Shown here: piece by piece, positions 8,776 to 31,100 of the stretch
Layout of the letters: each line of letters opens with the position of its first letter
How positions within the stretch are numbered: the stretch's first letter is position 1
Assembly: GCA_035380285.1 (NCBI GenBank)
Contig: DAOSXE010000015.1
Span: 1,927 to 65,926, forward strand
Length of the DNA: 64,000 nucleotides
Origin: a bacterium
GTDB lineage: Bacteria > Auribacterota > Erginobacteria > Erginobacterales > DAOSXE01
Direction: 5' to 3'
Made by a program: the position numbers and the translations under genes
Notes under the pieces: model-generated
What the model was told of the DNA's origin: nothing
What the model saw: only the letters and a program-made list of their open reading frames with translations
Database searches by the model: none

Positions 8776-8782
8776 GCCCGCG

Positions 8783-8925: not shown

Positions 8926-11019
8926 ATGACCAGAGAAATACCAATCGAAAAAGTCCGAAACATCGGGGTCATGGCCCACATCGACGCCGGGAAAACCACG
9001 GTGACGGAACGCATCCTTTTCTTCACCGGCCGCAGCCATAAGATCGGAGAGGTACACGACGGCGAAGCGACCATGGACTGGATGGTTCAGGAACAGGAAC
9101 GCGGGATCACCATCACCTCGGCGGCCACCACCGCCTTCTGGAAAGGCCATAGAATCAACATCATCGATACCCCGGGCCACGTCGACTTCACCGCGGAAGT
9201 CGAGCGTTCGCTCCGGGTCCTGGACGGGACCGTCGCTCTCTTCTGCGCGGTGGGCGGCGTCCAGCCCCAGTCGGAGACGGTATGGCGCCAGGCCGAGAAA
9301 TACATGGTCCCGCGTATCGCCTTCATCAACAAGATGGACCGGATCGGGGCCGATTTCGACGGCGTGGTGAAGGAAATCGAGGTGACCCTGGGGGCCAACC
9401 CGGTTCCGATCGTGATCCCGATCGGGGCGGGCGCGGAATTCGAAGGCGTCGTCGATCTGATCGAGATGAAGGCGATTTTCTACGACGAGGCGCCCGTCGG
9501 GGCGCGGATCCGGGAAGAAGCCGTTCCGGCCGAGCTCAGGGAAAGAGCGGAAGCCGCCCGGGAGTTTTTAGTCGAACGGGTCAGCGAACAGGACGACGCC
9601 CTCATGGAGAAATACGTGGGGGGACAGGAACCCTCCCGGGACGAACTGACGGCGGCCCTGCGCGGGGCCGTCATCCGCGGGGAGGTCATCCCGGTCCTCT
9701 GCGGCGCCGCGTTCAAGAATAAGGGCGTCCGCCGGCTGCTCGACGCCATCGTCGATCTTCTCCCCTCCCCCCTCGACCTGCCCCCGGCCATCGGCACCCG
9801 CAAGGAGGAGAACAAGGAGATCATCCGCCACCCTTCCGAGGACGCCCCGCTGGCCGCCCTGGCCTTCAAGATCATGGCCGACCGGCACCTGGGGAAACTG
9901 ACCTACCTGAGGGTCTACTCGGGGGTGCTCGCCAACGGGTCGTTCGTCTTCAACTCCAACCTGGAAACCAGGCAGCGGGTGGGGCGGATATTCCTCATGC
10001 ACGCCAACAAGCAGCAGGCGGTCGACAATTTGAGAGCCGGCGAGGTGGGGGCGGTGGTCGGCCTGGCCGAGACCAGGACCGGAGACACCGTCTGCGACGA
10101 GGCGCACCCCATCATCCTGGAAAATATCGATTTCCCCGCCCCGGTGATCGGGGTGGCCGTGGCCCCCGCCAGCCGGGCGGACCGGGATCGCCTGGCGGCG
10201 GCCCTGAGCCGCCTGGCCGACGAAGACCCCACCTTCACCGTCCGCACCGAAGAGGAGACGGGCGAAGTGATCATCTCGGGCATGGGCGAACTGCACCTCG
10301 AGGTCATCGTCGATCGGCTCAAGCGCGAATTCAACGTCGCGGTCGAAGTCGGGCAACCCCAGGTCGCCTACCGGGAGACGATCCTGGGGGATATCGAGCA
10401 CCGTTACCGCCACGTCAAGCAGACCGGAGGCCACGGCCAGTTCGCCGACATCATCTTCCGGATCGAGCCGGGCCAACCCGGCGAAGGCTTCCAGTTCTTC
10501 AACGAAATCCGGGGGGGGAACATACCCCGGGAATACATTCCTTCGATCGAACGCGGGGTGGTCGACGCCATGGCCCAGGGACCCTACGCCGGATTTCCCA
10601 TGGTCGACATCGTTTATACCGTCCTGGACGGATCGGCCCACGAAGTCGACTCCTCGGACATGGCCTTCCGCACCTGCGCCGCAGTCGGCTTCAAGGAAGC
10701 CTGCCGCAAGGCGGGCCTGCAGCTTCTGGAACCGATGATGAGCGTGGAGATCGTCACCCCCGAAGAATATATCGGCCCCCTGACCGGGAGCATCTGTTCC
10801 AAGCGGGGAAAGGTAACGAGCCTGATCCACAAGGCCACGCACTGCGTCCTCGCGGGCCAGGTGCCCCTGGCCAACATGTTCGGCTATTCCTCGGAACTGC
10901 GCACCATCACCAGCGGCCGCGGCGATTTTTCCATGCATTTCGAACACTACGCCGCCGTGCCCTTCTCCCTGGCGGAGGAGATCGTGGAACGACGGCGCCG
11001 GGAAGAGAAAATTCCCTGA
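8926..11019 (+). CDS. fusA: translation elongation factor G
   Basis: GTPase motifs [18 protein letters not shown] and full-length EF-G-like architecture (697 aa from internal ATG of ORF 8869..11019). Confidence 0.95.
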
Positions 11020-11088
11020 AGCGGCGGCCGCGAGGGGGCCCGGCGGAAAAAAACCGGCTCCCCGGGGGAGGGAACCGGTCGTGGAGCT
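10915..11088. repeat. 174-bp direct repeat, left copy (putative att site); spans last 105 nt of fusA plus 69 nt downstream
   Basis: Identical nucleotide-for-nucleotide to 21573-21746 (read directly). Confidence 0.9.
11047..11078 (-). terminator. duplicated copy of the tRNA-Ala intrinsic terminator inside the left repeat; positioned to terminate the island operon
   Basis: Same sequence as 21705-21736: on the minus strand an 8-bp stem (one G-U pair) followed by U7. Confidence 0.3.
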
Positions 11089-11281: not shown

Positions 11282-12310
11282 CTACGGCACCATCCTCGCG
11301 AAGTAAGGGTAGAGACGAGAGTACCGCTCGTAGTTGCTCATCTTGGCGATACTAACTTCCTCCGAGTCATCACCCTCAGTTAGATACCCTAGAGCGGTAA
11401 CACATACTGTCCCGTCTCCCGTTTCGGTCGGCAGAATTTCTTCGAGCTTCAGACGCTCCTTCGTGCTCAGCACCGGAACATCGATCTCATCGATCAAGCC
11501 CGAAGCAGTCACATAGAGGGGGCTCGTAGCCTTAAAGTGACCAAGCAACGCATCTCGGTTATTCTCCGGACAGAACACCCCTGTTATGCTTAACATAATT
11601 GTACCATCCGAGTACTTTGCCACCTGTAGCGGAAGAAAAGTCTTCGGCTTACTGCAAGCGCTCTCCAGAACCGATAGCACCATATGACTGAGCAACCATG
11701 GGAAGTTCTCCTCTTTGAAGTTCTCCCATGTGAACAGGTCATGGTCATAGGATACTTCTGCGACTGTCATGGCCTTCAGGTAATCATCTCGAAACTCATT
11801 GAAATCTTTCTTCTTGTAGGACGGAAGTATCTGCTGATGGCGCCGAAGCTTGACCTCCCTATATACCGGGGTCTCCGCCATGAGCGTTACCCGCAGCACA
11901 CTCCATTCAAGAGCCTGACGTGCGATACCGGACACTTCTGTCAACTCTTGTCGCCCAGCATCAACGTAATCCACCCACACAATCGTTGGTTTTTCGCTGG
12001 GAAACAGCGTTGACAGGAATTCCTCAAACCGACAGGACAGAAGTTTCACTTTTTTTGAACACTGGTGGAATTTCTGTCGCCTGTACGTCTCACCATCACT
12101 CTCAACCGACACCATGTCAAGGTTCGGGAACACGTTGCTCAGCAACCTGAAGTCTTCAAGAAACGGACCTCCAAACCCGATATACAAATGCTCTTTCAAG
12201 CTATGTGTGAGTTCAAACGTACGCAGCAACTCGACCAAGACCAAGCGATCAATAGCCTTGTTGGATCGCAAATGATATGCTGGATGTTTTGGTTTTCTGA
12301 GCCAGGTCAT
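11282..12310 (-). CDS. hypothetical protein, partner of the GHKL ATPase (4-nt overlap)
   Basis: 342-aa ORF with protein-like composition, last gene of the island gene array; no motif I can assign. Confidence 0.5.
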   Translation of the reverse strand: MTWLRKPKHPAYHLRSNKAIDRLVLVELLRTFELTHSLKEHLYIGFGGPFLEDFRLLSNVFPNLDMVSVESDGETYRRQKFHQCSKKVKLLSCRFEEFLSTLFPSEKPTIVWVDYVDAGRQELTEVSGIARQALEWSVLRVTLMAETPVYREVKLRRHQQILPSYKKKDFNEFRDDYLKAMTVAEVSYDHDLFTWENFKEENFPWLLSHMVLSVLESACSKPKTFLPLQVAKYSDGTIMLSITGVFCPENNRDALLGHFKATSPLYVTASGLIDEIDVPVLSTKERLKLEEILPTETGDGTVCVTALGYLTEGDDSEEVSIAKMSNYERYSRLYPYFARMVP

Positions 12311-13740
12311 TCCCTCGCCTCCTCAAGGATCACGTCAAAGCACCTCGCCCCAACATTGGATGGATTTCTGTCGGGGCTATCAAAGATGTACTGTGAAACA
12401 CGACGCACATCCCTGACAGCACGGGTAAAGACTATTCGCTCCGTCGTCTTCTTCTTGTCCGGTCGCGGTAACACAGGTTTGTACTGTTTGCCTTTCACGG
12501 CACCGCGCGTCGCAGTCATGTGCAATTTCAATGCTCGAGTTCGAATCTCGTCAAGCGTCGCTTTGTGTGTTGATCTCATCTCACATCGAGACTTGGCAAC
12601 GAGATCCTTACCTTTCCATTGGTTAGTGTACTGAGTGAACATCTTTGTTCCCTCAATCATCTTGTCACGCACCTGCAGGTAAAGAGGAGATGAGGCCTCG
12701 ATCCCTCTTTTGGTTGTCGTCATAGGCAAGAGATTCGCGTCATCCGCACTGAATATGACAATCCCCGATATCGCAATGAATTGCATGTGGTATTGCGGCA
12801 CTCCCGAAACTCCCCACCCAGTCAAAGGCGTCTTGTCACAGTAAACTACAGTTCGGTCGTTGCAGATCACAGTCCACCCGGCCTCTGCAGAAGAATACCG
12901 CTCCTTGTAGTTCTCAAGGCCTTCGTCTGCCTCCTCTCGGCTGGGGATCGGGCTCGTGAAACCCACAACAAGGAACACATCAACCCCATCGTGTTTCCCT
13001 TCGTAGATAAAGGGCATTATCGGGTGCTTCGATCTCACCGCTTCCTCCGCGAATAGCAGGCTTATGCTCCTAGGAGTTACCGCCTTTCCGTTGATACGGA
13101 CTTCAAACCCCTTGCCAATGATGTACGCATAGTGCGTCGCTACGGCCTCACGAAACGCTCTCTCAAAGGCTCCGGATTCGAATTCCGTACGCACGGATGA
13201 GTAAATACTTCTGATTTCAAGTGTGGTACCAAGAGTTTCTGCTGGCTTGATCGCGACTACGGGAATCAACCAGTCATCCTCTTTTGATATCCACTGCGGT
13301 GATAGCCGCAAACGGTAAGAACCGTCCTTCGCATGTGTTCTGATTGTGCAGTCCGCTCCCATCTTGAAGATGGCGCGCTTCATCCCAATTCCATACGTAC
13401 CGATGGTTTTTTTCCCCTTGTCTATGTCCGCTTTAATCCGTCCCATGCGAAAGGCGTAGTCATGGTATCTCACCGGTATCCCCCCACAGTTGTCTTCAAT
13501 CCTGAAGCGCGTCCCGTCAAACTCAATACTTGCCCAATATCCCTCGTATGGGAGACGCCTAGAAAGTTGCCGTTTCGTTTCAGCCCGCTGAATACCATCT
13601 ACACAGTTATCCAGCAGATCCAGGATCGCATCCTGAAGCTCGATGTCCCTTGTTAGCATATGTACGAAAAACGACTTGACCGGATTGGCCGGAATGTGTG
13701 GGATCTTCCTAAGATGCATCTGAGTAACCTCCTTATTCAA
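12307..13740 (-). CDS. MORC/MutL-like GHKL-superfamily ATPase (restriction/defence-associated type)
   Basis: Bergerat-fold motifs: N-box LDLLDNCVDG, G1 box EDNCGGIP, G2 box GTYGIGMKRAIF in the N-terminal ~200 aa; ~270 aa C-terminal region unassigned. Confidence 0.7.
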   Translation of the reverse strand: MNKEVTQMHLRKIPHIPANPVKSFFVHMLTRDIELQDAILDLLDNCVDGIQRAETKRQLSRRLPYEGYWASIEFDGTRFRIEDNCGGIPVRYHDYAFRMGRIKADIDKGKKTIGTYGIGMKRAIFKMGADCTIRTHAKDGSYRLRLSPQWISKEDDWLIPVVAIKPAETLGTTLEIRSIYSSVRTEFESGAFERAFREAVATHYAYIIGKGFEVRINGKAVTPRSISLLFAEEAVRSKHPIMPFIYEGKHDGVDVFLVVGFTSPIPSREEADEGLENYKERYSSAEAGWTVICNDRTVVYCDKTPLTGWGVSGVPQYHMQFIAISGIVIFSADDANLLPMTTTKRGIEASSPLYLQVRDKMIEGTKMFTQYTNQWKGKDLVAKSRCEMRSTHKATLDEIRTRALKLHMTATRGAVKGKQYKPVLPRPDKKKTTERIVFTRAVRDVRRVSQYIFDSPDRNPSNVGARCFDVILEEARE

Positions 13741-14914
13741 TAAACTCCTTCATGCGACTAAGTACGCTTTCTGCCAGAATCGGGCTGATGCTATTCCCGA
13801 TCTGTCTAAAGCTGTGCCACTTCGTCGAGTCGAACTGGAACCAGTCGGGGAAGCCCTGCAACCGGGCCGCTTCCCGGGGAGTAATGACGCGCGGCTCTGT
13901 GGGGTGAATTGGCCGAAGGGCTTGGTAGCTTCCATGCTCCGGGTCTGAGCCCGATCTTAGAGTCGGACAGAACCCCTTCCGTGCCAAACGCACAGCTCGC
14001 GAAGGCCCGTCAATGGCTCCCTCCGCCAGCTTGGCGAATCTCTCCAGAACGGTTTTCGTATGCCGTGTACCAAGACAGCCTGAAACGCGGTTCTCGTCTT
14101 GCAAGCGCCTAATCGCCTCCAGATCGCCAACACCCTCTGGTATCTTGTCGCGAATCCTTTCCCAAAACGGGCCGCTGTTGTGAGGCGTTACTGTGCGCCA
14201 ACTCTGGGCTTCTTGCTGCCACTCAGGACTGATCTTCTGGCGAAGACCTAGAAGTGCCGTCCCAACGTTGACTTTCGCGACGTTGGCAGGGGGCGCAAAA
14301 CAATCCTTCGTCAACCCGTTCGCACGCCCCACAACAATACCAATAAAGAACACTCGTTCTCGACTTGTTGCCGCGCCGAAATCCGATGCTTTGAGAATAA
14401 TAGGACCGAGGTTTATGTAGTTAGCCACTCTGGCCAACGCATTCGCGCGAACTTCGTCGAATTGAGAGTCCCGTATGCCTAGCACGTTCTCAGCAATGTA
14501 AAACGTGGGTTGAAGCTCCGCCACCAACCGAAAGAAGTGGTCGAACAGGTTGTTGCGCGCGTCATTTGGTTTGCGGCGACCGATTCGACTAAAACCCTGG
14601 CATGGCGGTCCACCGATAACCCCATCAATTCCGTTGATGTCGATTTGGGCCTTCTCAATAAGTTCTGCGCCTGTGAGTTCAGCAATGTTTGCATCAACGT
14701 ATTCGTATTTAGGGAAGTTCTTCTTGAAAGCGGATTTGGCTTGGGCATTGTTATCCACGGCTGCGGCAATCTGGAAGCCTGCGCGCGCTGCACCGAGAGT
14801 CAACCCTCCCACACCGCAGAACAAGTCAATGACCGTCGGCATACCTTCTGTTCCCTTCGCCGTTTTTCTGTTACCCGTGAAGCTCAGATCCGTCTCTATT
14901 CTTAACTGTATCAA
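13733..14914 (-). CDS. dcm: DNA (cytosine-5)-methyltransferase
   Basis: Motif I DLFCGVGG, motif IV catalytic PPCQGFS, ENV motif, C-terminal QIGNSIS. Confidence 0.9.
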   Translation of the reverse strand: MIQLRIETDLSFTGNRKTAKGTEGMPTVIDLFCGVGGLTLGAARAGFQIAAAVDNNAQAKSAFKKNFPKYEYVDANIAELTGAELIEKAQIDINGIDGVIGGPPCQGFSRIGRRKPNDARNNLFDHFFRLVAELQPTFYIAENVLGIRDSQFDEVRANALARVANYINLGPIILKASDFGAATSRERVFFIGIVVGRANGLTKDCFAPPANVAKVNVGTALLGLRQKISPEWQQEAQSWRTVTPHNSGPFWERIRDKIPEGVGDLEAIRRLQDENRVSGCLGTRHTKTVLERFAKLAEGAIDGPSRAVRLARKGFCPTLRSGSDPEHGSYQALRPIHPTEPRVITPREAARLQGFPDWFQFDSTKWHSFRQIGNSISPILAESVLSRMKEFIE

Positions 14915-15313
14915 TCACAGGCACTCCTCAAATCCATCTTCTGAAAGAATCGCTAGCCTTCCCCCTCTGCGAATCCAAGTGGCTATTCTCTTCACATCTC
15001 GGCCTTCACCAAACGCTGGGGTGCGCCTCCGAACGGCGCATTCCCAAATCACGAGAACACGCCAGCCCATATCTAGCAGTTTGCCTCGCACGCACAAATC
15101 TCGCAATCTGTTGCGTTTAATCTTCTTATTCCAAAACTGCTGATTGCTCTTTGCCTTCGGCCTTCGACCACATTCATGCCCATGCCAGTAGCATCCGTGG
15201 ACGAACACAACAGTCTTATGCCCGGCTAGAACAATGTCAGGTCGGCCCGGTAGATTCCTGGCGTGTAACCGATACCTAAAGCCTTCTCCAAACAGCGTCC
15301 TACGCACCTCCAT
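14915..15313 (-). CDS. vsr: very short patch repair endonuclease
   Basis: LPGRPDIV, FVHGCYWHGHEC and GWRVLVIWECA motifs; lies immediately 5-prime of dcm on the same strand with no gap. Confidence 0.85.
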   Translation of the reverse strand: MEVRRTLFGEGFRYRLHARNLPGRPDIVLAGHKTVVFVHGCYWHGHECGRRPKAKSNQQFWNKKIKRNRLRDLCVRGKLLDMGWRVLVIWECAVRRRTPAFGEGRDVKRIATWIRRGGRLAILSEDGFEECL

Positions 15314-15386
15314 TTCCGGGCCTGTGTTTTTCCCCGATTCGCAGCCATGATCTTGTGCCGAGTCTCAGCATTTACTCGGTCCACCA

Positions 15387-15653
15387 TCAAGACTTCCCTG
15401 CCCTTTTGTCCCGTTGATGCACTTTGTTATGACAAACGATGCACAATGTCTTCAGGTTCCCTTCAATATTTACGCTGCCCTTCACGTGATGCTCGATGTG
15501 ATGCAACTCCAAGTGTCGCGGATCGAACGGGTTCCATTCGTCGTGCGCCCACGCGCAAAACCGGCACTTGTCCCCGTCGCGCCGAAGCAACGGAAGCAAG
15601 CCGAACACACAGTTCAATCGCTTGTCCGACATAGAGATGTGGGGCGACCGCAA
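15387..15653 (-). CDS. small HNH endonuclease
   Basis: CRFC ... HHIEHHVKGSVNIEGNLKTLCIVCHNKVH (HNH motif with flanking Cys pairs); 5-prime end overlaps the end of the preceding gene so true start may be the internal Met (MSDKRL). Confidence 0.6.
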   Translation of the reverse strand: MRSPHISMSDKRLNCVFGLLPLLRRDGDKCRFCAWAHDEWNPFDPRHLELHHIEHHVKGSVNIEGNLKTLCIVCHNKVHQRDKRAGKS

Positions 15654-16720
15654 CCTGCAATCTCACCAACCGCCTGACCGACAACAGCGTATGTGTCATA
15701 GCTCGGTATCCGGAGCATTGGACCGGTGAAAGACGCACAAAGAAGAGGTACTCGTTCGCGTAGATGTGCAGACCCCAAATCTCCTCCGCCAATCTTCACA
15801 CCATGGTCAGCCACTACGAACACCCAATCGCCAGAACGAAGAAAATCCAAGAATGACTGTAGAAAAGCGTCAAACCGCTCAAGGGTTCGCCAGCACGCCG
15901 ATGCATCTCCCATGTGGGCATAACGGTCAAAATCCTCCAGATTGACCATGATAAATGCCTCGTCCTCCGCCGCTGTAACCTCTGCATTCAACAGCTCAAA
16001 GCACTGCTCGTCTCGCTCAGTTCGTACTGCCATATTCGCTGGCAAGGATAGGATTTCCTGCACCTTGCCGTTGACTATCCGTCTCCATCCAAGCGGCACG
16101 AATTTCTGCAGCAGAGACTCTCCATCGATCATCTGAAAGAAGTCACGCCGTAGTTCTTCAACCGGTTCTCCGCCACGCAACGGTCTTGCAAGCACCTTCT
16201 TCACGCATAACTCCGCTGATGCATCCAACATGCAGCGGAGTGCCTGTGCGACTTTATATAGACACTCACGGGGCACGACAATTTCATCTGCACTCACGAC
16301 CACAGTGCTGTCGAGCCCCCTATAGAGCATTATTGCCCCAGTTTGCAAATGTTCGAGCCACAACTCCGGGAGAACATCCCTGCCCCTTCCCTGTTTGTTG
16401 CCAATCAACTTAACTCCACAATTATTGCCAAGCTTCATCAGAACATCACGCGGTAGCGGTTCCGAGGGTATAGGGTGAGGTTGTTTAGTTATCCATCCGA
16501 ACATCTCGCGATGTCCTTCCTCCGATCCCACCGCGACTGACGCTTGTCTCATCACATGTCCACGACCCGTGACCGCAGCATCCAATCCCATATTAAAAAG
16601 GACTGGAAGAACGGAGATTTTGCGGCCGTACTGTTCGCACAGAGTCCCTAGGGTGCTGGTCTCACCGCCGTCAGGAGCAACTCCAAAACCATCTACAACG
16701 ATCACAAAAACGCGCGACAT
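15614..16720 (-). CDS. phosphopentomutase-like metalloenzyme (alkaline phosphatase superfamily)
   Basis: N-terminal FVIVVDGFG, central NLEDFD, C-terminal VVADHG ... HLRERVPLL, matching the DeoB-type motif order. Confidence 0.7.
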   Translation of the reverse strand: MSRVFVIVVDGFGVAPDGGETSTLGTLCEQYGRKISVLPVLFNMGLDAAVTGRGHVMRQASVAVGSEEGHREMFGWITKQPHPIPSEPLPRDVLMKLGNNCGVKLIGNKQGRGRDVLPELWLEHLQTGAIMLYRGLDSTVVVSADEIVVPRECLYKVAQALRCMLDASAELCVKKVLARPLRGGEPVEELRRDFFQMIDGESLLQKFVPLGWRRIVNGKVQEILSLPANMAVRTERDEQCFELLNAEVTAAEDEAFIMVNLEDFDRYAHMGDASACWRTLERFDAFLQSFLDFLRSGDWVFVVADHGVKIGGGDLGSAHLRERVPLLCASFTGPMLRIPSYDTYAVVGQAVGEIAGCGRPTSLCRTSD

Positions 16721-18534
16721 CAGGATTCAAATTTTCTGATTCGCAGGTTAACGAATTCAACAACTTTCCGCCAAAGACTGGCGATTGAAACTTTGCTGCC
16801 AAGCGAGAGTTCTCCTTCATACTGAAGAAGAAGAGGAATGATCGGTATAGTTACCTTTAGCTTGTCCGTAACAGAAATATCAGACTTCAGCACAGTGGAA
16901 GTAACGGAGACCCGTTCTGCGACCTTAGGCAAAATGGCTGAAGATTTTATGGTGTCACAGAGCGTCGCTAACACCTCTCTGGATTCTTCAAGCAGCGCTT
17001 TCATCTCCTCTGTTTCAGGCTCATGGTCCATCGCTGAGACGAATGACTCGACAACAACATCCCGGGCCGTTCTCGCCTCTGATACCGCCTCTGTAGCAGC
17101 GATCTTCCCTGCCATCTGAAGTTGTTCGTATTCCATGACAGACGCGACGACTCTGCCCCGTATCTCTAGGATATCTTCCTCAAGCCGCTGGATGCTTTTG
17201 GGTCGGTCCTCGACTCTCAGGGTATCTTCAGTGCGTTTGAGAAGGACGAAGTCCTTGCGTAGATTATCCCGAATATCTTCCAGCCTCTGTTTCTCTACCG
17301 GTATCCCGTTAGCCACTGTTTCGTCCTTCCTCTCTTCACAGGATCTGGGAACGCCGACGATTCTCCTCACATCGGTCAGAATATCCTTTGGGGCCGATGC
17401 CTCGGAGACAGCGCCAAGAATATGCACCAATGCTGTCACGCTCGAACGTATCCGCTCTGGGTCCGAAAGCAACCCGCGTCCCATTTGAATCATCACGTCC
17501 GCACCAAATGTCTCAACGTTCTGAAATATTTCTTCGAGGAAAATACTTCCCGAAGAAACAGCGAAGCATGGTCTGAGACCATACTGATCGCCCTGTAGCT
17601 TTTCGATTTCCTCCTTCAATATTGCTTGCTCATACGGAAAATCCTGGGTGAACGGCCCTGTGTAGACAGCATCTCCACCTGCAAGTCGCGAAAGTAGGGC
17701 AATTACCTGCTCCGCTAGGTAGTGCGTGCTCTTGCGCGTCAATACACCCCGGCCGATGTTGTTCACAACGAATGCTGTCTGACCATCACACGTATCGATC
17801 ACATGCCTGACAGCCGAAAAACCCATCGCGATACAGTTGAGGGTAAAACCACAAACGCCATGGCGCTGTCCATCCTCGACCAAGCGCAAGGATGTCTCCA
17901 CATCTGCGGTTGCATTCATGAAGTAGCCCAACTTGCGCCCCGTTTTCTCTTGGGCTGCAGTAACTACGGTTTCAATGGCCTGTGCGCGTTGTCCAAATGG
18001 ACTACAACTTGGGGACACGAGCAACTCGTCGTCAATCACGTAGTCAACACCACCCTCCAATGCTCTTTGCACTGTTGGGAGAATATCAGATAGACTCATG
18101 CGCAACCGCGGTTTCAGGATGAGCCCCAGAAGCGGCCGTTGGGAAACACCAAGAAGCTTCCTAATCCCTGATACACCATACCTTGGCCCCTTGTATTCAT
18201 CGAGGCAAACTTTGGGCAATGCCAGATCCACCACGGCAAATCGCTTCAGCGCTGAAAAGACAGAGCAATAGCACACACTCCCTAGGAGCATGGCGAGACC
18301 CGTACCAAGTCCAGCAGAACAAGGCGGCAGGGACAAAAGCACTTCAAGCTCGTTCTTGGATTGATCAATCTCACGAACATCGAGAATCTCTGGGTCTTCG
18401 TGAAATTCACAAGGCTCATCGGTACGTCGCAGCGGAATCGTTCCGGTGCTGCCTAGATCCATCGCAGCGAGGAGTTGCTTCAGCCCCTTCTCACGGTTTT
18501 CTAGGATCATGTGAAGTGTTACAGTTGCATGCAT
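16720..18534 (-). CDS. RuBisCO large-subunit-like protein (RLP) with Lys-to-Ile at the carbamylation position and a ~200-aa C-terminal extension
   Basis: [29 protein letters not shown] parallels the RuBisCO [30 protein letters not shown] signature; [10 protein letters not shown] aligns to [18 protein letters not shown] parallels GHYLNATA; C-terminal region is charged and coiled-coil-like. Confidence 0.7.
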   Translation of the reverse strand: [604 protein letters not shown]

Positions 18535-18543
18535 AATCGATCC

Positions 18544-19113
18544 TTAGTGCTTAACGTCAATGACTTTGCCATCTACAAGAAAGGTTCCGCTCGTCAAGTG
18601 GTACACCTGCGGTATTGCACTTCTCAGTTTTATCTTATCCTCTGAGAACAATTCTTTATCGATATCTGCTGCAACGACCAATCCAACAACAACGTGGTGG
18701 TTTCCTGCCTCCTTGTGCCATTGCAGCTTACATTCCAGATTGACTGCACATTCTGCTATCCGCGCGGGCTTCACCTTGTTCCTCGCATATGGTGTCAATC
18801 CCGTTTCCTCAAACTCATCCACGGCCGGCGGATACTCGTTAGCAGCCTGGTAAAGTTGAGTCAGAATCTTGCTCGTAGGAATTCCTACCACAAACTCGCC
18901 GGTCTTTGAGATATTCTTGAAGGTGTCAGACTTTGGCGAGATACCAAGCGCAACCATCGGGGGGCACGTCGAACACGGCGTGAACATAGCGTAGGGTGCC
19001 AAGTTCTTAACCCCCGCTGTGTCGACCGTTGACACGAGTACAACAGGGGACGGCTGAACCAAGTAGACAACTTTTGCAACTTTGTCTAAGACCTCGATCT
19101 TCTGATACTTCAT
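18544..19113 (-). CDS. flavin reductase-like (FMN-binding split-barrel) protein
   Basis: VVLVSTVD...NLAPYAMFTPCS..PPMVALGI...DTFKNISKTGEFVVGIP pattern typical of flavin reductase family. Confidence 0.7.
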   Translation of the reverse strand: MKYQKIEVLDKVAKVVYLVQPSPVVLVSTVDTAGVKNLAPYAMFTPCSTCPPMVALGISPKSDTFKNISKTGEFVVGIPTSKILTQLYQAANEYPPAVDEFEETGLTPYARNKVKPARIAECAVNLECKLQWHKEAGNHHVVVGLVVAADIDKELFSEDKIKLRSAIPQVYHLTSGTFLVDGKVIDVKH

Positions 19114-21059
19114 CTTGTATCTCCTCTCATCTGATCTACCATTTCAACCAAATCCGCAAAAACAAGGTCTGGCCGGGAATCATGCGTGCGTCGAGCCACA
19201 TCTTCAGCAGTACTTATCCCTCCAAGAACAAGGCAAGCCAACGCTCCAGCCTTTCTGGCTGCTGCTATGTCAGTATCGAGCGAATCCCCAATTACGGCTA
19301 CCTCTTGCGGTTTCATACCCATAAGATGAAGTAGAAGGCGAAGCGAGAAGTCATTTGGTTTCCCCACGACAAAGGGCGATTTGCCAGTTACTGTTTCAAT
19401 TGCAGCCACAATCCAGCCAGTTCCGGGCTTGTCCATACCCGGAGCAGCGAACACACGATCCCGGTCCGTGCATACGAACTCCGCACCCTTCAAAATTGCT
19501 CGCTGGGCTGCCACTAGGTCGGCATATATGAAATCCTTTGAATAGCCAACGACAACTGCGTCAATGTAACCAGTGTGATCATTGGCGGCGATATCCATGC
19601 CACCGCAGGCGAGCAACTCAGGTAGTGCTGGTGCTCCACCCAGCACCAAGCAACACCTGTATCCCTTAGTGCGGCAATACTCGGCAGCGGCAATAGTGGA
19701 CGTCATGATATGCCGCGGGTCCGCTATCACGGCCATCTGGCCGAGTTTGTCTGCTAACTCCTGCTGCCTTCTTACGCTCGTGTTTGTCAAGAAGCCAACT
19801 GTAACGCCAGATTGTCGCAAAATGCGAATGGCCGCGAGGCTGGCTTCTATCGGCTTGTCTCCTTTATAGAGAACACCGTCGAGATCCAGCACAACTCCCC
19901 GTTTTGAAGCCAGATCCCGCAGCTTATCCGTGGACTTTACTGGCACCCTCGGATGGCGTGGCTCGCGTGGGCGTGAACATTGGATCGTATAGAGCGACCT
20001 CACGGCGGTATTCCAGGATAGCTTGTACTCTTCATGGCCGCGCATGAAATCAACTTCCTGTAGCCCGTTATCGCAAGCCCATCGAATCGCTTCACCCAAT
20101 AGCACTAGCCCCGGAGAACAATCGTCTAACGCCAAATCAAAGGATGTGTTCCAGTCATAGTATCTGCCACCACGGATGAAGCCCATCCGATAAGCAACTA
20201 TGTTGCCGTTCAGAAGCAGATGAAAAAGACAGAAATTCCCGGTTCCGGCGAAATCTTTCGCAACGTCATGAATGAAGCCTCTGCGCCTTGTGTCGGCAAA
20301 TGCTTGGACTCCGTGAATACTGTCCCAACGAGTATCATGGAGATCAAATAGACGTTCGAGGGTTTCATGGTCGTAATCCCGGACAACTTGGAGTTCTACC
20401 TTGCCGCGGCGGCGCAGAGCCCGCATCTTGCGGTTCAGCATTCGCCGCCGGTTTCTTGTCCGTGACTTAAGATACTTATCCCAAGAACAACCAAGTTCTA
20501 TATACGGCGCATCCTCTGCCCTGACAATAACCGGTGATAGACCGCAATCTTGAAGTGCACGTGTTACAATGTGCAAGGTGACGTCATCTTGCCGTATGTT
20601 TTGTAGCCTTATTTCATCCCATTCCAAATGGTCGCACATCGCGGCTGCGATGCGGTCGATAGGATCACATGCAAAGGCCGAGAAGACTCCGCCTAGGTAG
20701 TCACTACAACAATCAGAAAGAAGCGTAAGGATCGTATGGGATCCTACGCGTTTGCGCATCAGAGGCAGAATGGCAAGAACGTCATCTCCCAGCGCGGCCC
20801 AGAAGATGGACAATTCCCTGTCAGAACCGAAGTGGCCCCACCAGTACGAAAGCCAACGTGGATCAACCGAGACTGGAAGGTTAGGCTGTTTTTCAAGGAT
20901 CTTAACCCAGTGAGGGTAGATTGCGGACCACTCCTCATTGCTCCTCACAACACCGACCTGGGCCCTACGATAGTCGCGTTCCGTCGACATGTAGTTACGC
21001 AGGGAATATTGCCAACTTGTCTGTGATGCATCCAGCCAGCTATCGCTGCACATCATCAC
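19110..21059 (-). CDS. fusion protein: large N-terminal FemAB/CelD-like acyltransferase-type domain (tentative) plus C-terminal HAD-IIA phosphatase domain
   Basis: C-terminal HAD motifs in order (VVLDLDGVLY, FLTNTS, GKP, IGDSLDTDI) are clear; N-terminal ~370 aa Trp-rich domain assigned by resemblance only. Confidence 0.65.
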   Translation of the reverse strand: MMMCSDSWLDASQTSWQYSLRNYMSTERDYRRAQVGVVRSNEEWSAIYPHWVKILEKQPNLPVSVDPRWLSYWWGHFGSDRELSIFWAALGDDVLAILPLMRKRVGSHTILTLLSDCCSDYLGGVFSAFACDPIDRIAAAMCDHLEWDEIRLQNIRQDDVTLHIVTRALQDCGLSPVIVRAEDAPYIELGCSWDKYLKSRTRNRRRMLNRKMRALRRRGKVELQVVRDYDHETLERLFDLHDTRWDSIHGVQAFADTRRRGFIHDVAKDFAGTGNFCLFHLLLNGNIVAYRMGFIRGGRYYDWNTSFDLALDDCSPGLVLLGEAIRWACDNGLQEVDFMRGHEEYKLSWNTAVRSLYTIQCSRPREPRHPRVPVKSTDKLRDLASKRGVVLDLDGVLYKGDKPIEASLAAIRILRQSGVTVGFLTNTSVRRQQELADKLGQMAVIADPRHIMTSTIAAAEYCRTKGYRCCLVLGGAPALPELLACGGMDIAANDHTGYIDAVVVGYSKDFIYADLVAAQRAILKGAEFVCTDRDRVFAAPGMDKPGTGWIVAAIETVTGKSPFVVGKPNDFSLRLLLHLMGMKPQEVAVIGDSLDTDIAAARKAGALACLVLGGISTAEDVARRTHDSRPDLVFADLVEMVDQMRGDTR

Positions 21060-21572
21060 TCCTGTTACTTGCTTTTTTCTTCCCGGGCGGCGAGATTCTC
21101 CTCAATCATGCGTGACACAATCCAAGAGAGCGAACGCTCCTCTTTCTCCGTCAACTCTTCCAAGATTTCTTAGACTTGCGGGGTAACTCGGACGCTCAGG
21201 AGTTTTATTTTCAGTTCAACCTTGTGCCTTTTCGTAGGGTGTACGACGTCATGCATTTGCATGCTGATTTTAATAATATATGATGTGTATGCTGTGTGAT
21301 GATAGTAGAAAGAAGAAGGATCCGATAAACTGCTTTCTGTATGCCCATTAGTCGATTGATTAGTCCACCCGTCAGATGCTATAAATTGAGGCGCAGGTCA
21401 CGGGACTTTTGGAGTATGCCCAGAAGGAACGTCTGCATCGTGGAGAAGTTTACGGAATTCATGACAGCATGGAAACCGGGCTGACCGGTTTTCAATGCAA
21501 TGATGGATCGGGGAGTCAAATGCGCTGCTCGCGTGGCTCCCTGACCGCTTCGGGCGTAACCCACTCGGCGGG

Positions 21573-21677
21573 GGCCGCGGCGATTTTTCCATGCATTTCG
21601 AACACTACGCCGCCGTGCCCTTCTCCCTGGCGGAGGAGATCGTGGAACGACGGCGCCGGGAAGAGAAAATTCCCTGA
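21573..21677 (+). pseudogene. duplicated 3-prime fragment of fusA (last 34 codons plus stop) created by the repeat; not an independent gene
   Basis: Sequence identical to fusA 10915-11019 but lacks the upstream ~2 kb of the gene. Confidence 0.7.
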
Positions 21678-21704
21678 AGCGGCGGCCGCGAGGGGGCCCG
21701 GCGG

Positions 21705-21736
21705 AAAAAAACCGGCTCCCCGGGGGAGGGAACCGG
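21705..21736 (-). terminator. intrinsic terminator directly downstream of tRNA-Ala
   Basis: On minus strand: ccgguucc / ggagccgg stem (8 bp, one G-U) with 9-nt loop followed by U7, beginning 4 nt after the tRNA 3-prime end. Confidence 0.5.
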
Positions 21737-21739
21737 TCG

Positions 21740-21812
21740 TGGAGCTGAGGGGATTCGAACCCCTGACCCCATGGCTGCCAGCCATGTGCTCTCCCAGCTG
21801 AGCTACAGCCCC
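21740..21812 (-). tRNA. tRNA-Ala (anticodon GGC)
   Basis: Reverse complement folds as cloverleaf: acceptor GGGGCTG/CAGCTCC with G3-U70 alanine identity pair, D-arm GCTC/GAGC, anticodon loop CTGGCAG, T-arm AGGGG-TTCGAAT-CCCCT; CCA not encoded. Confidence 0.9.
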
Positions 21813-28131: not shown

Positions 28132-31100
28132 CTACCGAAGCTCGGAGTAAGGGCTTTCGGGAACCACCTGGTTCTCCAGATCGGAAACGGGGCGGAAGGT
28201 GGTGACCACCGCGCCCGGGGAATAGCGGTGAAGGCGGATCTCCTGGTCCCACGCCCCGGATTTCCCCCAGCGCAGATCGGGGTCGGGATCGGCCCAGGTT
28301 TCGGCGGGAACGTGCCCGGCATGATCCACTCCGGTCCACGTCACCTCCAGCTCCGTCCCTCCCACCGTCAGCACCATCCCGTCGTCGATCCACCGGTAGT
28401 CGCCCTGCAGGTGCCAGCGCACGATCCCCTGGCCGGGAAGGGTATCCTTGACTTCGATTCTCCTGTCTCCGGTCTTGTAGAGAACTACCTCGCGGCGCCA
28501 GCTCAGCGCTCCGACCGTGGAAACGGTGACGCTGCGGGACAGTTCGGAAGTGTCTTCCCAGGTCTCGGCCGCCGCCGGCGGGTAGGTGCCGCCGGTCTCG
28601 ACCAGGTTATGGAGTTTGAACGACGGATTGGAGTAGTTCATGGTCACCCCGGTGACGAACTCCTCGGGACCGACCCCCAGGCTGAGGATATCGTTGCCGA
28701 AGCCGTACCGGTCCTGGCCGCTGCCGGCGACCTGGGCGCCGAGGTCGAGCATGAGGAAAAGGGCGTCGGACCCGGACCCCGACCGGTGGATGACCTTGTC
28801 CGGGGTATCCACCAGTTGCGCCAGGGACTCGTCGTAGACTCCCGCCAACGATTGTCCCGGCATCATCGGCCGGGAGAGCACGCCCCCGGGGCAGTCCCCG
28901 TCGGCGGGCGCCTCGGGAACGAGATCTTCGTTCAGGAACCAGTAGAGGTAGACGGGGTTCATGTACACGGCGAACGGCCCCATCTGGGTGCCGGGGTAAC
29001 CGTAATCGTTGCGGCCGTAGGCCACCACTTCATGGCCCCGCGCGTACTCGAAGGCCTGCTGCAGAAGCCATTTGGCCCGCGCCGCGGCGGACCGGTGCTC
29101 GGGCACGTCATCGTCCAAAACCGCGGTGGCGGCGGCCAGGACTTCGAGGAAACGGTCGGTGAAGGCCTGCAGGTAATCCTGCCCGTAGGCGGGCATGAAC
29201 CCGTTGGGAGGGAAGGTCTCGATCAGGAGACAGACCTGGCGGTAGAAGTTGTCCCGCCACCTCTTGCCTTCCCCGTCCTCCACCGGGATCTCCATCCGGT
29301 TGGAGTAAAGGGCGACCCGCAGCATTTCCCGGATGAAGAGCCCCTGCCAATAGCGCGAGTTTTCGGGCAGGGTCCAGGTGTCGTCGTAACTGAGGAGCCG
29401 GTTGGCCCAGGCAATCATCTCCCGGCCCGGCTCTCCGCCGACGATATACCCCACCACCGCGTTGAGTCCGCAGACCGTCCCCTGCGCATAGTTCCCGGTA
29501 GAAGCGACTTCGCGGCGGTCCAGGGCCAGGCGGACGAATTTCTTCTCGATCTCGGCGCGCTCGGCCGACGAGAAAATCCCGGAGGCGGCCAGGGCCAGGT
29601 AGGCCTCGGCGACGTCGGAGATGCCCCGGGAGGTGGAGGTTCCGCCCCAGTCGAAGGAGGAATCCCGGACCAGGGCCAGCAGGTTCTCGCGAAAATAGTC
29701 GGCGCAGGGCCGGTACCCGGTCGCCAGATAGATGAAAGCGGTGTTGGGGAGATAGTCGTAAAGCGCGAACCGGGCGTCGGACGCCCCCAGGTTGCCGTCG
29801 AAGTTCTTGAAGTAGCACCCGGTGGCGAAATCGATCCAGTCGGCATAGTCCTCCACGGTCAGGCTGGAAATAAACGAGGCCCTCAGGGGGGAGGCCGGGG
29901 AATAATTGCCGTTGGTTTTTCCGGGGGTGCCGAAGTTGGTGGTGGTGCCCACGCTGTAGGTGGAACTGCTCAGCGCCCGGGCCCAGTTGGACTTGGTGGA
30001 ACCGCTCACGTCGGGGTCGAGACGCTCCATCGAAAATCCTTCCTGGGTGGTCACGAACCAGCCGGCGGAACTGCAGTCCACCGTATCGATGGTCTTACCG
30101 GAGTCGTCCTTCAAGACCAGCTTGTCCCCGCTGCCGCCGCACGTCAGCGTACTGGTGGCCTGGGCCCGGGCGCCGTTGGCCTGAACCGGAACGCTCAGGG
30201 CGCTGTTGGCGACGACCACGTAGAACGCCCCCACCGGGAGTTCGTAGCTCTTGAGCGAGATGCTCCAGTTTTCGGAATCGTTGTTCAGGGTCCAGTTTTC
30301 CACCTGCTGGGCGGCATCCCCGTAATTGGCGATCTCGATCCAACAGTAGGTGGGCTGATTCAGGGTGCCGGCGTAATTGATCTCGTTGATGACCAGCTGG
30401 CTGCTGCCGCCGCTGGAAGTGGGAGCCGGCACGGGAGTGGGAGTGGGGATGGGGGTGGGGGGAGGCGTGGGGGTGGTGAGGGTGACCCCGAACCAGGTCC
30501 GGTAAGCTTCCTTGTAGGTTTCCTGGAGGAGTCCGTAGGCCAGGGTCTGCCCTTCCGGCCGATACGGTTCCGGCGGCTCCAGGTCCTGAAGATCGTATTC
30601 CGCCTCCGCCGCGGCCGAGGCCCCGGCGGCCGCGCCGGATACCGGGGTGGGAACGACCGGGGGAAGCCAGCCCGCGCGGGCGAAGGGAGTGGGAGTGGGG
30701 GTGGCCCCGAACGTGTTCAAGTCCTCTATGTCGGGGGCGTACCAGACATGAACGCCGCCGTCTCCGGAAGCGGCGAAGACCATGTCGTCCTCCACCGCCA
30801 GCCCCTGCAGCGGGGCGCCCCCGGCTTCCAGCCTGCGCGCCAGGCGGAACCCGGGCAACTCCCAGACATAGAGGGAGCCGTCGTGACAGGAGGCGTAGAG
30901 AAACCCCCGGGCGGCGGCGGCGCCCGTAACCTGGTCCCGGCAGTCGTCGAGGATTTTCAGGGGAGCGAACTCCAGGGACCAGACATAGACATTCCCGTCC
31001 GAGGAGGAAAGGTATATCCGGTCGGCGTCGGTCGCCACCGAGTTCAGGTCGCTTTCGGCGCCGGCCAGCTCCGCCAGGGGCGCTCCGGTGGTCCGGTCCC

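Follow-up and report, generated by a model that had tools for sequence, protein, structure and literature searches.

The cassette and its genomic island

The window, by which we mean the whole 64,000-nt stretch of DNA that was analysed, carries an island in the form of a 10.66-kb insertion of low GC content (51.5% GC vs 66% in the flanks) with a perfect 174-nt direct repeat on the left and on the right, the latter overlapping the last 8 nt of a tRNA-Ala(GGC) gene (21739-21812, minus strand; for the other features see Table 1). The island harbours a 5.4-kb cassette of four genes, which encode a putative transferase-phosphatase fusion protein, a flavin reductase-like protein, a RuBisCO-like protein (RLP) and a phosphopentomutase (PPM)-like metalloenzyme, together with a restriction-modification (R-M)-like module. 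The cassette genes are translationally coupled through overlapping start and stop codons, e.g. the start of the flavin reductase gene overlaps the fusion stop codon (ATGA) and the start of the PPM-like gene overlaps the RLP stop codon (TGATG).

The fusion ORF comprises 649 codons and runs uninterrupted from a GTG at 21059 to 19110, and gene callers in public assemblies give proteins of 647-648 aa. An AGGAG sequence at 21063-21059 has its best spacing to the ATG at 21053, which is the probable start and would yield 647 aa. Directly upstream lies a ribbon-helix-helix (RHH)-like ORF that is broken by an in-frame TAA, the same in six independent assemblies, and is probably the pseudogene remnant of a regulator. 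The first-pass annotation had placed the fusion first in its operon; it is the first intact gene, with the disrupted RHH-like ORF standing ahead of it. Counts of predicted promoters and terminators were no higher than in shuffled sequence, and no riboswitch or other RNA element was found upstream of the cassettes in the window island or at four related loci. Publicly, the protein is annotated as 'HAD-IIA family hydrolase' only, i.e. the transferase half is missing from its name.

Table 1. Features of the island and domains of the fusion protein (positions in the window)
Feature	Position	Strand	Remarks
Left 174-nt direct repeat, perfect	10915..11088	+	fusA 3' end and intergenic sequence
R-M-like module	11282..15653	-	HNH-like small ORF 15387-15653; Vsr 14915-15313; Dcm 13733-14914; HATPase_c_3 12307-13740; Methyltransf_35 11282-12310
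PPM-like metalloenzyme gene	15614..16720	-	368 aa
RLP gene, new clade	16720..18534	-	604 aa
Flavin reductase-like gene	18544..19113	-	189 aa, PF01613
Fusion gene	19110..21059	-	predicted N-terminal double-GNAT Fem-like transferase, linker, C-terminal HAD-IIA phosphatase
HAD-IIA phosphatase domain	19113..19901	-	residues 387-649; Pfam, NCBIfam, motifs
Interdomain linker	19902..19973	-	residues 363-386
GNAT lobe 2 (predicted)	19974..20489	-	residues ~191-362; PF13480 match 202-346 inside
GNAT lobe 1 (predicted)	20490..20960	-	residues ~34-190; structure model
RHH-like ORF	21065..21262	-	directly upstream of fusion; in-frame TAA at 21170-21172
Right 174-nt direct repeat, perfect	21573..21746	+	duplicated fusA 3' end

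The two halves of the fusion protein

The first-pass annotation described the N-terminal ~370 aa as a separate Trp-rich domain tentatively related to FemAB/CelD-type GNAT-fold acyltransferases, and our data agree. Specifically, 14 Trp residues are present among the N-terminal 372 aa (3.8%) compared to one among the C-terminal 277 aa, and Acetyltransf_6 (PF13480) matches residues 202-346 with an E-value of 1.9e-32 (112.8 bits, cutoff 22), spanning profile positions 1-142 of 143; all fusion relatives match this family as well. A confident structure model of the domain has FemX, FemA, Sbb17 and MprF as its top structural matches by two methods, and predicts a double (tandem) GNAT fold. The identity to the structurally matched Fem enzymes is 10-14%, the Pfam scan at E ≤0.01 gave no match to the FemAB family (PF02388), and a profile of the domain searched against PDB sequences returned chance matches only (E 0.4). 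The kinship to FemAB is drawn from the fold and from a common Pfam clan.

Several motifs are characteristic of the domain: CSDY in lobe 1 (residues 118-121, nt 20697-20708; invariant in the family), and in lobe 2 AYRxGF (289-294), DWNTS (302-306) and GxExYK (341-346, nt 20022-20039). The last of these, near the end of lobe 2, includes an aromatic-Lys pair, Y345-K346, that is invariant in the family alignment. Moreover, lobe 2 starts with a basic helix (residues 195-220, nt 20400-20477) having 14 K/R and no D/E, and the relatives carry 6-9 K/R across the equivalent 26 residues. Hallmarks of Fem-type enzymes are the double-GNAT fold and a positively charged lobe-2 helix that binds the tRNA acceptor stem, and catalysis depends on a Lys following an aromatic residue (F304-K305 in FemX, F328-K329 in DhpH-C) with no other acid/base (PMC12945691). 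Y345-K346 and the basic helix are candidate counterparts of these features in FemX. The modelled domain is FemX-like and probably uses aminoacyl-tRNA.

In an alternative that leaves architecture and cassette unchanged, the domain might be a CelD/BcsL- or BspF-type acyltransferase dependent on acyl-CoA, which would acetylate or acylate the dephosphorylated product with no involvement of tRNA. An acyl-CoA donor is possible since the domain matches PF13480 (CelD/BcsL-type) and not FemAB, and since NCBIfam gives a weak match to BspF, named as a PF13480-type protein, which uses crotonyl-CoA. We consider this alternative rather unlikely, though more probable than the others discussed below.

The reading of the C-terminal half as a HAD subfamily IIA phosphatase with all four motifs stands: the curated cutoffs are passed and motifs I-IV are all found in order. 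Hydrolase_6 (PF13344) matches at 389-486 with 73 bits (cutoff 27), Hydrolase_like (PF13242) matches at 565-639 with 66.6 bits (cutoff 22), and the score for TIGR01460 (HAD-SF-IIA) is 125.9 bits (cutoff 100.15). Motif I is D392-L-D394-G (nt 19875-19886), followed by TNTS at 425, GKP at 566 (K567) and GDSLDTD at 591 (D592, D597); the nucleophile Asp does not vary in the alignment of nine family members, nor do T425, K567, D592 and D597, and the acid/base residue at +2 is D, H or E depending on the type of cassette (see below). The domain has a C2-type cap architecture and can be aligned over its entire length with solved HAD-IIA structures (E 9e-40; the E-values against solved members reach 1e-40), among which pNPPase, NagD and PLP phosphatases are closest. 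On its conserved residues this half is a HAD-IIA phosphatase predicted to be catalytically intact. Its substrate is not assignable by homology, since all specific equivalog cutoffs are missed (TK1734, 154.6 vs 475; PRK10444, NagD-type, 105.7 vs 368; PGP_euk, 126.8 vs 201.95); a segment specific to the family, PGTGWIVAAIE, is also present. The linker between the halves is of similar length across the family with a mean identity of 16% and low pLDDT at its start, and the fusion protein has no transmembrane (TM) segments.

Conservation of the fusion and of its partner genes

The fusion is rare, with ~8 full-length clusters among 1.84 billion representatives. The eight full-length relatives (30-58% identity) have both domains in a single ORF, the same ORF is found in at least six independent assemblies, and the two domains have co-diverged (Mantel r 0.80; 0 of 5000 permutations as high). 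The fusion arose once, in a single ancestral event, and the frameshift artefact that the first-pass annotation had named as a possible refutation is not what joins the two halves. We also looked for the domains as separate neighbours elsewhere: at one Zixibacteria locus (L102) an orthologous HAD-IIA protein (36% identity) has a gene to itself, next to an RLP of this clade, and no GNAT partner was detected there. A 477-aa protein at that locus was considered as the split-off GNAT partner and rejected (hhalign probability 0.1; no Pfam or NCBIfam match). This locus, referred to as type C, has no detectable GNAT domain, which suggests that the transferase is dispensable to the RLP-HAD core. A profile scan of 185,579 species-representative genomes, incomplete in coverage and with a query dominated by the generic HAD motif DLDGV(V/L)Y, gave at least 80 standalone HAD-IIA loci and no fusion among the matches listed. 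Viral contigs scanned with the N-domain had no relative, tblastn with the N-domain against plasmids gave only four distant GNATs (22-34% identity), and tblastn with the RLP against phage genomes gave no match.

The RLP matches PF00016 with 86.4 bits (cutoff 30.1), and its best solved relatives are the form III RuBisCOs 8dht (E 1.7e-31) and that of T. kodakarensis (3a13). It keeps K175 (GLILKPR, nt 18106-18126), D203 and E204, and has the substitutions K201 to Ile (DYVIDDE, nt 18025-18045), H294 to Asn, R295 to Asn and H327 to Tyr; carboxylation of RuBP is ruled out by the replacement of these four residues. Position 201, the carbamylated Lys, is Ile or Val throughout the clade, and DY[IV]IDDE is among the RLP motifs common to types A and B. 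To our knowledge, the characterised RLPs retain the carbamylated Lys; with K201, H294 and H327 missing, the chemistry of this RLP is not extrapolable from known RLPs. It scores below the cutoffs of known types (MtnW/YkrW, OiaX; TIGR03332, 83 vs 513.6; NF007095, 105 vs 409; NF042437, 91.7 vs 700), and there are 16 clusters of the clade in 5.8 billion. Its sequence features place the partner RLP in a new clade of form IV. A C-terminal helical extension of ~220 aa includes an invariant PIIP motif (nt 16810-16857); the model of this extension is of low confidence (pLDDT 62, pTM 0.34). The PPM-like protein aligns over its full length with the phosphopentomutase DeoB, is below the equivalog cutoffs (146 vs 256 and 110 vs 341), and has its metal ligands preserved (D, DxxH, DH, H) with the nucleophile Thr replaced by Ser.

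The fusion is always linked to this K201-less RLP clade and, with a single exception, every recovered locus that reaches past the fusion 3' end has the flavin reductase gene after the fusion; fusion, flavin reductase and the new RLP clade are the conserved core of the cassette. Type A (the window, L001-3/L105 and L101) consists of fusion, flavin reductase, RLP and PPM-like genes, and L099, where the contig begins inside the flavin reductase gene, shows the rest of this order. Type B (L096 and L103) has the order RLP, TM protein, PNPOx-like, TMPK-like, NUDIX, fusion and flavin reductase, i.e. dTMP-kinase-like, NUDIX and PNPOx-like genes instead of a PPM-like gene; the order is partly kept in L095 (flavin reductase truncated) and on the P0166 contig (no flavin reductase). 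In L103 a SemiSWEET transporter gene comes after the operon.

Among the neighbours at other loci are type III R-M, GmrSD and Cmr2 genes, DruA (E 5e-179) with a HerA-like gene, a fragment of an anti-phage HerA (E 2e-109), integrases, ArdC and TrwB. In other lineages the cassette is not accompanied by the R-M-like module of the window and, since adjacent modules differ between lineages, such modules are not part of it. With hosts ranging from 28% to 66% GC, the cassette is rare, horizontally mobile and located on mobile islands. When compared with PADLOC-DB 2.0.0, no model was matched by the type A fusion, flavin reductase, RLP or PPM-like proteins, nor by the RLP, TM protein, PNPOx-like protein, fusion or flavin reductase of type B; for the dTMP-kinase-like protein of types B and C there is a full-length match to PDC-M51B (E 1e-21) and one to VakA (E 5e-13). 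Our literature search found nothing on the cassette.

Proposed role and comparison with known systems

Our preferred reading, for which we see an even chance, is that the fusion protein is bifunctional: it would strip the phosphate from a product that its partners derive from a pentose or nucleotide and then aminoacylate or acylate this product, probably with a role in biological conflict. A phosphorylated precursor of pentose or nucleotide origin would be supplied by the PPM-like enzyme in type A, and by the dTMP-kinase-like, NUDIX and second P-loop kinase-like enzymes in type B. The RLP might then enolise or isomerise this precursor, a kind of reaction that other RLPs carry out on ketose phosphates, after which the HAD-IIA domain would remove the phosphate, following the logic of the MtnW enolase/MtnX phosphatase pair and of PgpC acting before MprF. 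Finally, the tethered Fem-like domain would move an aminoacyl group from aminoacyl-tRNA (or, less likely, an acyl group from acyl-CoA) onto the unmasked product, and the flavin reductase could supply a redox step. Sequential action on one phosphorylated product of the PPM-like and RLP enzymes, as the first-pass annotation suggested, would fit the conserved and coupled synteny. The pathway as drawn is incomplete, since the cassette has no pentose isomerase or nucleoside phosphorylase.

From the defence and mobile neighbours, the likeliest use of the product is in conflict, whether in defence against phages or as a small molecule with antimicrobial or anti-defence action; housekeeping metabolism is less likely. 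This association is drawn from ~8 lineages, and since several neighbours (ArdC, TrwB) are mobile-element or anti-restriction genes, the cassette could equally well serve in anti-defence or be cargo. More doubtfully, the cassette may be an unrecognised conflict system that makes an aminoacylated pentose- or nucleoside-type molecule by combining RuBisCO-like chemistry with aminoacyl-tRNA. If so, this molecule might act as a signal or as an antimetabolite against viruses or microbes, and the system would provide a first function for the new RLP clade and a new enzymatic logic in bacterial immunity.

A different role, which we regard as improbable, is that of an ordinary accessory pathway which catabolises or salvages some nutrient or by-product derived from a pentose or nucleoside, carried as metabolic cargo of the island with no part in conflict. 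Here, the RLP (as enolase/isomerase) and the HAD phosphatase would follow a variant of methionine-salvage or 5-deoxyribose logic; an RLP followed by a HAD phosphatase has its metabolic precedent in the MtnW/MtnX pair, and the weak RLP matches to MtnW and OiaX, the PPM, NUDIX and nucleotide-kinase partners as classical metabolic enzymes, the SemiSWEET gene after the L103 operon and the absence of the core proteins from PADLOC are all consistent with salvage. Arguing against it are the extreme rarity of the cassette, as seen from the 16 clusters of its RLP clade, the lack of fusions among the matches listed from the incomplete genome scan, the invariably mobile or defence-related contexts in hosts of such different GC content, and the absence from the cassette of a catabolic regulator, of a kinase/isomerase set and of any equivalog of a known pathway above its cutoff; moreover, known salvage routes have no place for a Fem-like transferase.

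It is less probable still that the fusion acts on nucleic acid alongside restriction systems, the Fem-like domain using tRNA to aminoacylate DNA or RNA and the HAD domain processing a terminal phosphate. GmrSD is a nuclease family that targets modified DNA, and cassettes adjoin GmrSD, Dcm/Vsr and type III R-M genes; the very basic helix would suit such a substrate too. There is also a precedent in phage Mu Mom, a GNAT which, in the context of restriction evasion, uses Gly-tRNA to glycylate adenine in DNA (PMC13219725). However, Mom is a single-GNAT protein, and the fusion N-domain best matches double-GNAT enzymes with small-molecule or lipid acceptors. The HAD-IIA members we know of are small-metabolite phosphatases, the closest solved relatives of this domain being pNPPase, NagD and PLP phosphatases, the obligatory partners (RLP, PPM-like, NUDIX and kinase) suggest chemistry on sugar/nucleotide metabolites, and the adjacent R-M modules vary by lineage and lie outside the cassette. 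An artefact, i.e. a frameshift or assembly error joining two adjacent genes, for which we found no support apart from the public name covering the HAD part alone, is refuted by the identical ORF across assemblies, the eight orthologous clusters with a linker of similar length, and the co-divergence of the domains, and is practically excluded.

Returning to the bifunctional enzyme with a conflict role, comparison with known systems starts with the FemABX enzymes (FemX of W. viridescens, 4ii9; FemA, 1lrz; the relatives Sbb17/Sba18/Orf11, PacB, DhpH-C and VlmA). In contrast to these, to which its identity is the 10-14% given above, the fusion family is marked by invariant motifs not shared with them (CSDY, AYRxGF, DWNTS and GxExYK) and by a phosphatase tether, for which we found no description among Fem-type enzymes in the literature. 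MprF and other aminoacyl-phosphatidylglycerol synthases (L-PGS, 4v36; MprF, 6lv0) are likewise different: MprF is tied to a membrane flippase and acts on lipid, whereas the partner genes of the fusion, which itself lacks TM segments, suggest soluble sugar/nucleotide chemistry. A Fem/MprF-type transferase tethered to a phosphatase is an architecture that we did not find described in the databases or literature searched. The tether suggests that phosphate removal is coupled to aminoacylation, which, if confirmed, would extend the known non-translational uses of aminoacyl-tRNA. With the known HAD-IIA enzymes (A. fulgidus Pho2 pNPPase, 3qgm/4jdp; PH1952; NagD, 2c4n; PLP phosphatase/chronophin; 2-phosphoglycolate phosphatase of the TK1734 family) the fusion shares the four motifs and the C2 cap, and it differs from them by carrying a 370-aa transferase and by scoring below every specific equivalog cutoff.

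The MtnW (RLP) and MtnX (HAD) pair resembles the cassette in that the genes for an RLP and a HAD phosphatase occur together, their products presumably catalysing successive steps on one phospho-ketose. The cassette RLP is nevertheless far from MtnW (83 bits vs the cutoff of 513.6) and without the carbamylated Lys, MtnX falls into another HAD subfamily, further salvage genes are absent, and the transferase, flavin reductase and PPM-like enzyme are extra. In the archaeal pentose-bisphosphate/AMP pathway, which leads from nucleosides or NMP via ribose-1,5-bisphosphate and RuBP to form III RuBisCO, the enzyme is of the form to which the best solved relatives of the cassette RLP belong, and the cassette likewise pairs its RLP with pentose-phosphate and nucleotide enzymes; in contrast, the cassette has neither AMP phosphorylase nor R15P isomerase, and the carboxylase residues are replaced. 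RLPs are a long-standing annotation problem with several clades lacking a function, and the fixed set of partner enzymes makes the chemistry of the new clade experimentally tractable. As to the PADLOC kinase candidates (the PDC-M51 and VakA systems), only the accessory kinase of types B and C matches, and the type A cassette of the window has no such kinase. On mobile islands the cassette recurs beside R-M, GmrSD, Druantia, HerA and CRISPR genes, which makes it a concrete and compact candidate for metabolite-based defence or counter-defence.

Architecture and origin of the fusion protein

The fusion gene forms one uninterrupted open reading frame of 649 codons in the window, and an AGGAG motif (21063-21059) has the best spacing for an ATG at 21053, a start in agreement with the 647-648 amino acids called in public assemblies, where the NCBI label is 'HAD-IIA family hydrolase [bacterium]' and nothing more. 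A Pfam scan matched residues 202-346 to PF13480 (Acetyltransf_6; E 1.9e-32), and residues 389-486 and 565-639 to Hydrolase_6 and Hydrolase_like, the pair of domains that is the signature of HAD-IIA. Over their whole length the C-terminal 260 residues align with HAD-IIA phosphatases of solved structure (E 9e-40), and the HAD-SF-IIA subfamily model in NCBIfam is matched at 125.9 bits, above its cutoff of 100.15; HAD motifs I to IV are DLDG (392), TNTS (425), GKP (566) and GDSLDTD (591). The first-pass annotation had recognised these motifs in the IIA arrangement, correctly so, and this part belongs to HAD-IIA proper but fits no specific equivalog. Its description of the N-terminal domain as Trp-rich also holds, with 14 Trp among 372 residues (3.8%) vs one in the remainder of the protein, and all factual points of that annotation are thus confirmed.

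The N-terminal domain was modelled with good confidence by AlphaFold2 from 12 sequences (mean pLDDT 85.2, pTM 0.82), giving two successive alpha/beta lobes (residues ~34-190 and ~191-362). FemX matches this model with E 3e-12 and TM 0.60-0.66 in Foldseek, the ranking of which agrees with that of the other structural method; at the sequence level the domain matched no PDB chain, and the Pfam scan gave no match to the FemAB family. Fem-type enzymes have a double-GNAT fold, a positively charged lobe-2 helix for binding the tRNA acceptor stem and an aromatic-Lys pair as sole reactive residue (FemX F304-K305, DhpH-C F328-K329), and several of them (FemX, PacB, Orf11/Sbb17) use nucleotide-linked or amino-sugar acceptors (2026 review, PMC12945691). 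The window protein is predicted to share the double-GNAT fold; its helix 195-220 has 14 K/R and no acidic residues, and Y345-K346 at the end of lobe 2 is invariant in the family alignment, K346 being the putative Fem-type Lys. As modelled, the domain would by fold be Fem-type transferase-like (Fem/MprF class) and by sequence a PF13480 member, and the relation to FemAB/CelD-type GNAT folds that had tentatively been put forward is thus upheld. The putative donor is aminoacyl-tRNA or acyl-CoA. Both predicted catalytic domains of the fusion protein are intact.

The fusion is rare: when 1.84 billion cluster representatives were scanned exhaustively with HMMER, eight full-length relatives (598-624 aa, 30-58% identity) carrying both domains in one stretch were recovered, and a few fragments besides. 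All nine aligned sequences keep the Fem-like motifs CSD, AYRxGF, DWNTS and GxExYK unchanged, and the HAD nucleophile Asp, which is D392 in the window protein, and motifs II-IV are likewise invariant. Moreover, the two domains are correlated in their pairwise identities (Mantel r 0.80, reached by 0/5000 permutations), and the linker between them, of 24 residues and poorly conserved at 16%, is of similar length family-wide. Co-divergence together with a length-stable linker is what one ancient fusion, passed on as a unit, would leave behind; the fusion arose once. A frameshift artefact joining two genes, which had been considered beforehand, can be dismissed given the single reading frame in all eight relatives, the co-diverged domains and the identical protein in at least six independent assemblies.

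The island and the partner enzymes

In the window, the fusion gene sits in a 10,658-bp block of 51.5% GC within DNA of 66% GC, bracketed by perfect 174-nt direct repeats that comprise the fusA 3' end, intergenic sequence and the last 8 nt of tRNA-Ala(GGC) (see table). The 10.66-kb island lacks an integrase, and every island gene is on the minus strand. The fusion gene is translationally coupled to genes for a flavin reductase, a non-carboxylating RuBisCO-like protein (RLP) and a pentose-phosphate or nucleotide enzyme set; with the native upstream region, the four genes span 15614-21262. The in-frame TAA of the RHH-like ORF is the same in six independent assemblies, and the ORF has probably decayed from a gene for a regulator or an antitoxin-like protein; upstream of the cassette in the related loci L002 and L101, no equivalent was found.

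Coordinates of features in the window and in related public loci (L numbers)
Sequence	Feature	Coordinates	Strand	Remark
Window	Left direct repeat	10915-11088		174 nt, perfect
Window	R-M-like module	11282-15653	-	HNH-like ORF, Vsr, Dcm, HATPase_c_3, Methyltransf_35
Window	HNH-like small ORF	15387-15653	-	overlaps PPM-like 3' end
Window	Phosphopentomutase-like (PPM-like) gene		-	start overlaps RLP stop (TGATG)
Window	RLP gene		-	604 aa
Window	RLP C-terminal extension	16720-17382	-	~220 aa
Window	Flavin reductase-like gene		-	start overlaps fusion stop (ATGA)
Window	Fusion gene	21059-19110	-
Window	RHH-like ORF	21262-21065	-	in-frame TAA at 21170-21172
Window	Right direct repeat	21573-21746		174 nt, perfect; ends 8 nt inside tRNA-Ala(GGC) 3' end
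Window	Duplicated last 28 codons of fusA	21591-21677	+	in right repeat
Window	1930-aa ORF	28132-33924	-	outside island
L095	Small TM protein	1743-2120		after RLP
L096	Small TM protein	4238-4603		after RLP
L102	Small TM protein	5674-6015		after RLP
L103	Small TM protein	6846-7232		after RLP
L101	HD-CE protein	254-3301	+	1015 aa, upstream of cassette
L102	477-aa protein	6034-7467	+	in slot after RLP and TM protein
L103	SemiSWEET-type transporter	12035-12301	+	88 aa, NF037968, E 7e-21

The remainder of the island is a separate R-M-like system of unusual composition, in which Dcm is of the C5 methylase type, HATPase_c_3 represents a GHKL ATPase with a faint MzaB match and the Methyltransf_35 protein belongs to PF20553; the Dcm and Vsr genes are without calls in one strain variant (L005). 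Elsewhere in the window and unrelated to the fusion, the 1930-aa ORF is annotated in matching public contigs as having multiple WD40/beta-propeller domains and an LTD domain.

The closest alignments of the RLP are to form III RuBisCOs (8dht, E 1.7e-31), those to known RLPs being weaker. The protein retains K175, which is K141 in its own numbering, as well as D203 and E204, while K201 is replaced by Ile, H294 and R295 by Asn and H327 by Tyr, and a carboxylase function is therefore ruled out. Scores against the MtnW and OiaX equivalog models fall far below the cutoffs, which sets it apart from both. The replacement of K201 by Ile/Val and the motifs LILKPR, DY[IV]IDDE, NxIGR and DAVYTGP are conserved across an RLP clade of 16 clusters, and the clade is therefore under selection rather than decaying. 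To our knowledge, characterised RLPs keep the carbamylated Lys.

In some layouts, referred to below as type A, the RLP carries a C-terminal helical extension with an invariant PIIP motif, ending in the invariant K-L-K-x-T-x-PIIP-x-LL-x-Y-E-G-E; the model of the extension is of too low confidence to interpret. In the others (types B and C) the RLP is short, and its gene overlaps the next one, which encodes a small protein predicted to have 2-4 TM helices. This small protein may represent a membrane-associated partner or effector. Finally, the PPM-like protein aligns over its full length with DeoB and retains the metal ligands, and its nucleophile Thr is replaced by Ser67, which lies in GSEEGH.

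Cassette layouts and their neighbourhoods

Context look-ups of the recovered loci gave three cassette layouts. Type A (fusion, flavin reductase, long RLP, PPM-like) is found in the window, in a lineage of 58% identity (L001-3/L105), in L101 and in L099/L004, where the L099 contig starts inside the flavin reductase. Type B comprises an RLP of ~433 aa, the small TM protein, a PNPOx-like flavoprotein, a dTMP-kinase-like protein, NUDIX, the fusion, a flavin reductase and a second P-loop kinase-like protein; it is complete in L096 and in L103, where the operon runs from 5554 to 11959, while the same order appears in L095, where the flavin reductase is truncated, and on the P0166 contig, where none is called. 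In L103, the SemiSWEET-type transporter gene directly after the operon may be a hint that a sugar-like product or substrate is transported. Type C, present in a Zixibacteria MAG (L102; GCA_028700875.1), has NUDIX, dTMP-kinase-like, a standalone HAD-IIA, RLP, the TM protein and a protein of 477 aa. Identity between the standalone HAD-IIA and the HAD domain of the window protein is 36%, and the two share the GW.VAA and VGKP segments; the 477-aa protein has no Pfam, NCBIfam or PADLOC match and no similarity to the Fem-like domain. The question raised at the outset, i.e. whether the two domains occur as separate neighbouring genes, is hence answered: the HAD-IIA stands alone beside the same RLP clade, but none of the recovered loci has a separate GNAT gene alongside. 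The constant core is RLP plus HAD-IIA, to which type A and type B cassettes add the Fem-like domain and the flavin reductase. HAD motif I differs by layout: type A has DLDG, type B D[IM]HG and type C DLEG.

Cassette GC ranges between 28% and 52%, the hosts belong to different phyla, and all contexts are mobile or conflict-related. Specifically, the window cassette neighbours Dcm, Vsr and HATPase; in L105/L001-2 a type III R-M system (N6_N4_Mtase and ResIII) and GmrSD_N lie upstream, and an IS481-like gene and Cmr2 lie downstream; L099/L004 have DruA (PADLOC E 5e-179) with a HerA/DndH-like ATPase, DUF932 and TrwB/TraG; immediately upstream of the L103 cassette lies a fragment of an anti-phage HerA (E 2e-109); and integrases and ArdC accompany the cassettes of the P0166 contig and L102. 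The HD-CE protein of L101 combines an N-terminal HD-CE domain with a weak IucA/IucC-like region and had no PADLOC match. A recognised defence gene lies at most three genes away in 4 or 5 of about 8 independent lineages, and from this small sample we infer a proximity well above background. The type B/C kinase resembles PADLOC PDC-M51B and VakA; PADLOC has no model for any core cassette protein, a literature search found no paper on the cassette, and no riboswitch was detected upstream of it in the window island or four related loci. The cassette gene set moves horizontally among conflict genes, and its role could be defence, anti-defence or plain cargo.

A possible pathway and its relation to known systems

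In the pathway that we propose, a phosphorylated pentose or nucleotide-derived precursor would be delivered by the PPM-like enzyme (type A) or by NUDIX and the kinases (type B) and then enolised or isomerised by the RLP. The HAD-IIA domain would remove the phosphate, the tethered Fem-like domain would aminoacylate (or, less likely, acylate) the exposed group, and the flavin reductase would provide a redox step. No isomerase or phosphorylase is among these enzymes, and the RLP chemistry does not allow extrapolation from known enzymes. That the fusion signals a genuinely new conflict system, one built on RLP chemistry and aminoacyl-tRNA, is a rather unlikely reading. The interest of the gene goes beyond the fusion itself, in that it points to a compact and testable cassette that is uncharacterised.

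Each fusion domain falls in a known superfamily. What appears to be new is the covalent pairing of a Fem/MprF-class transferase with a HAD-IIA phosphatase, an RLP clade without the carbamylated Lys, and the fixed association of the two in a mobile cassette. The pathway logic has precedents in the MtnW/MtnX enolase-phosphatase pair, to which RLP and HAD-IIA may by analogy correspond, and in phosphatidylglycerol-phosphate phosphatase followed by MprF, where dephosphorylation precedes transfer as it would in the fusion protein.
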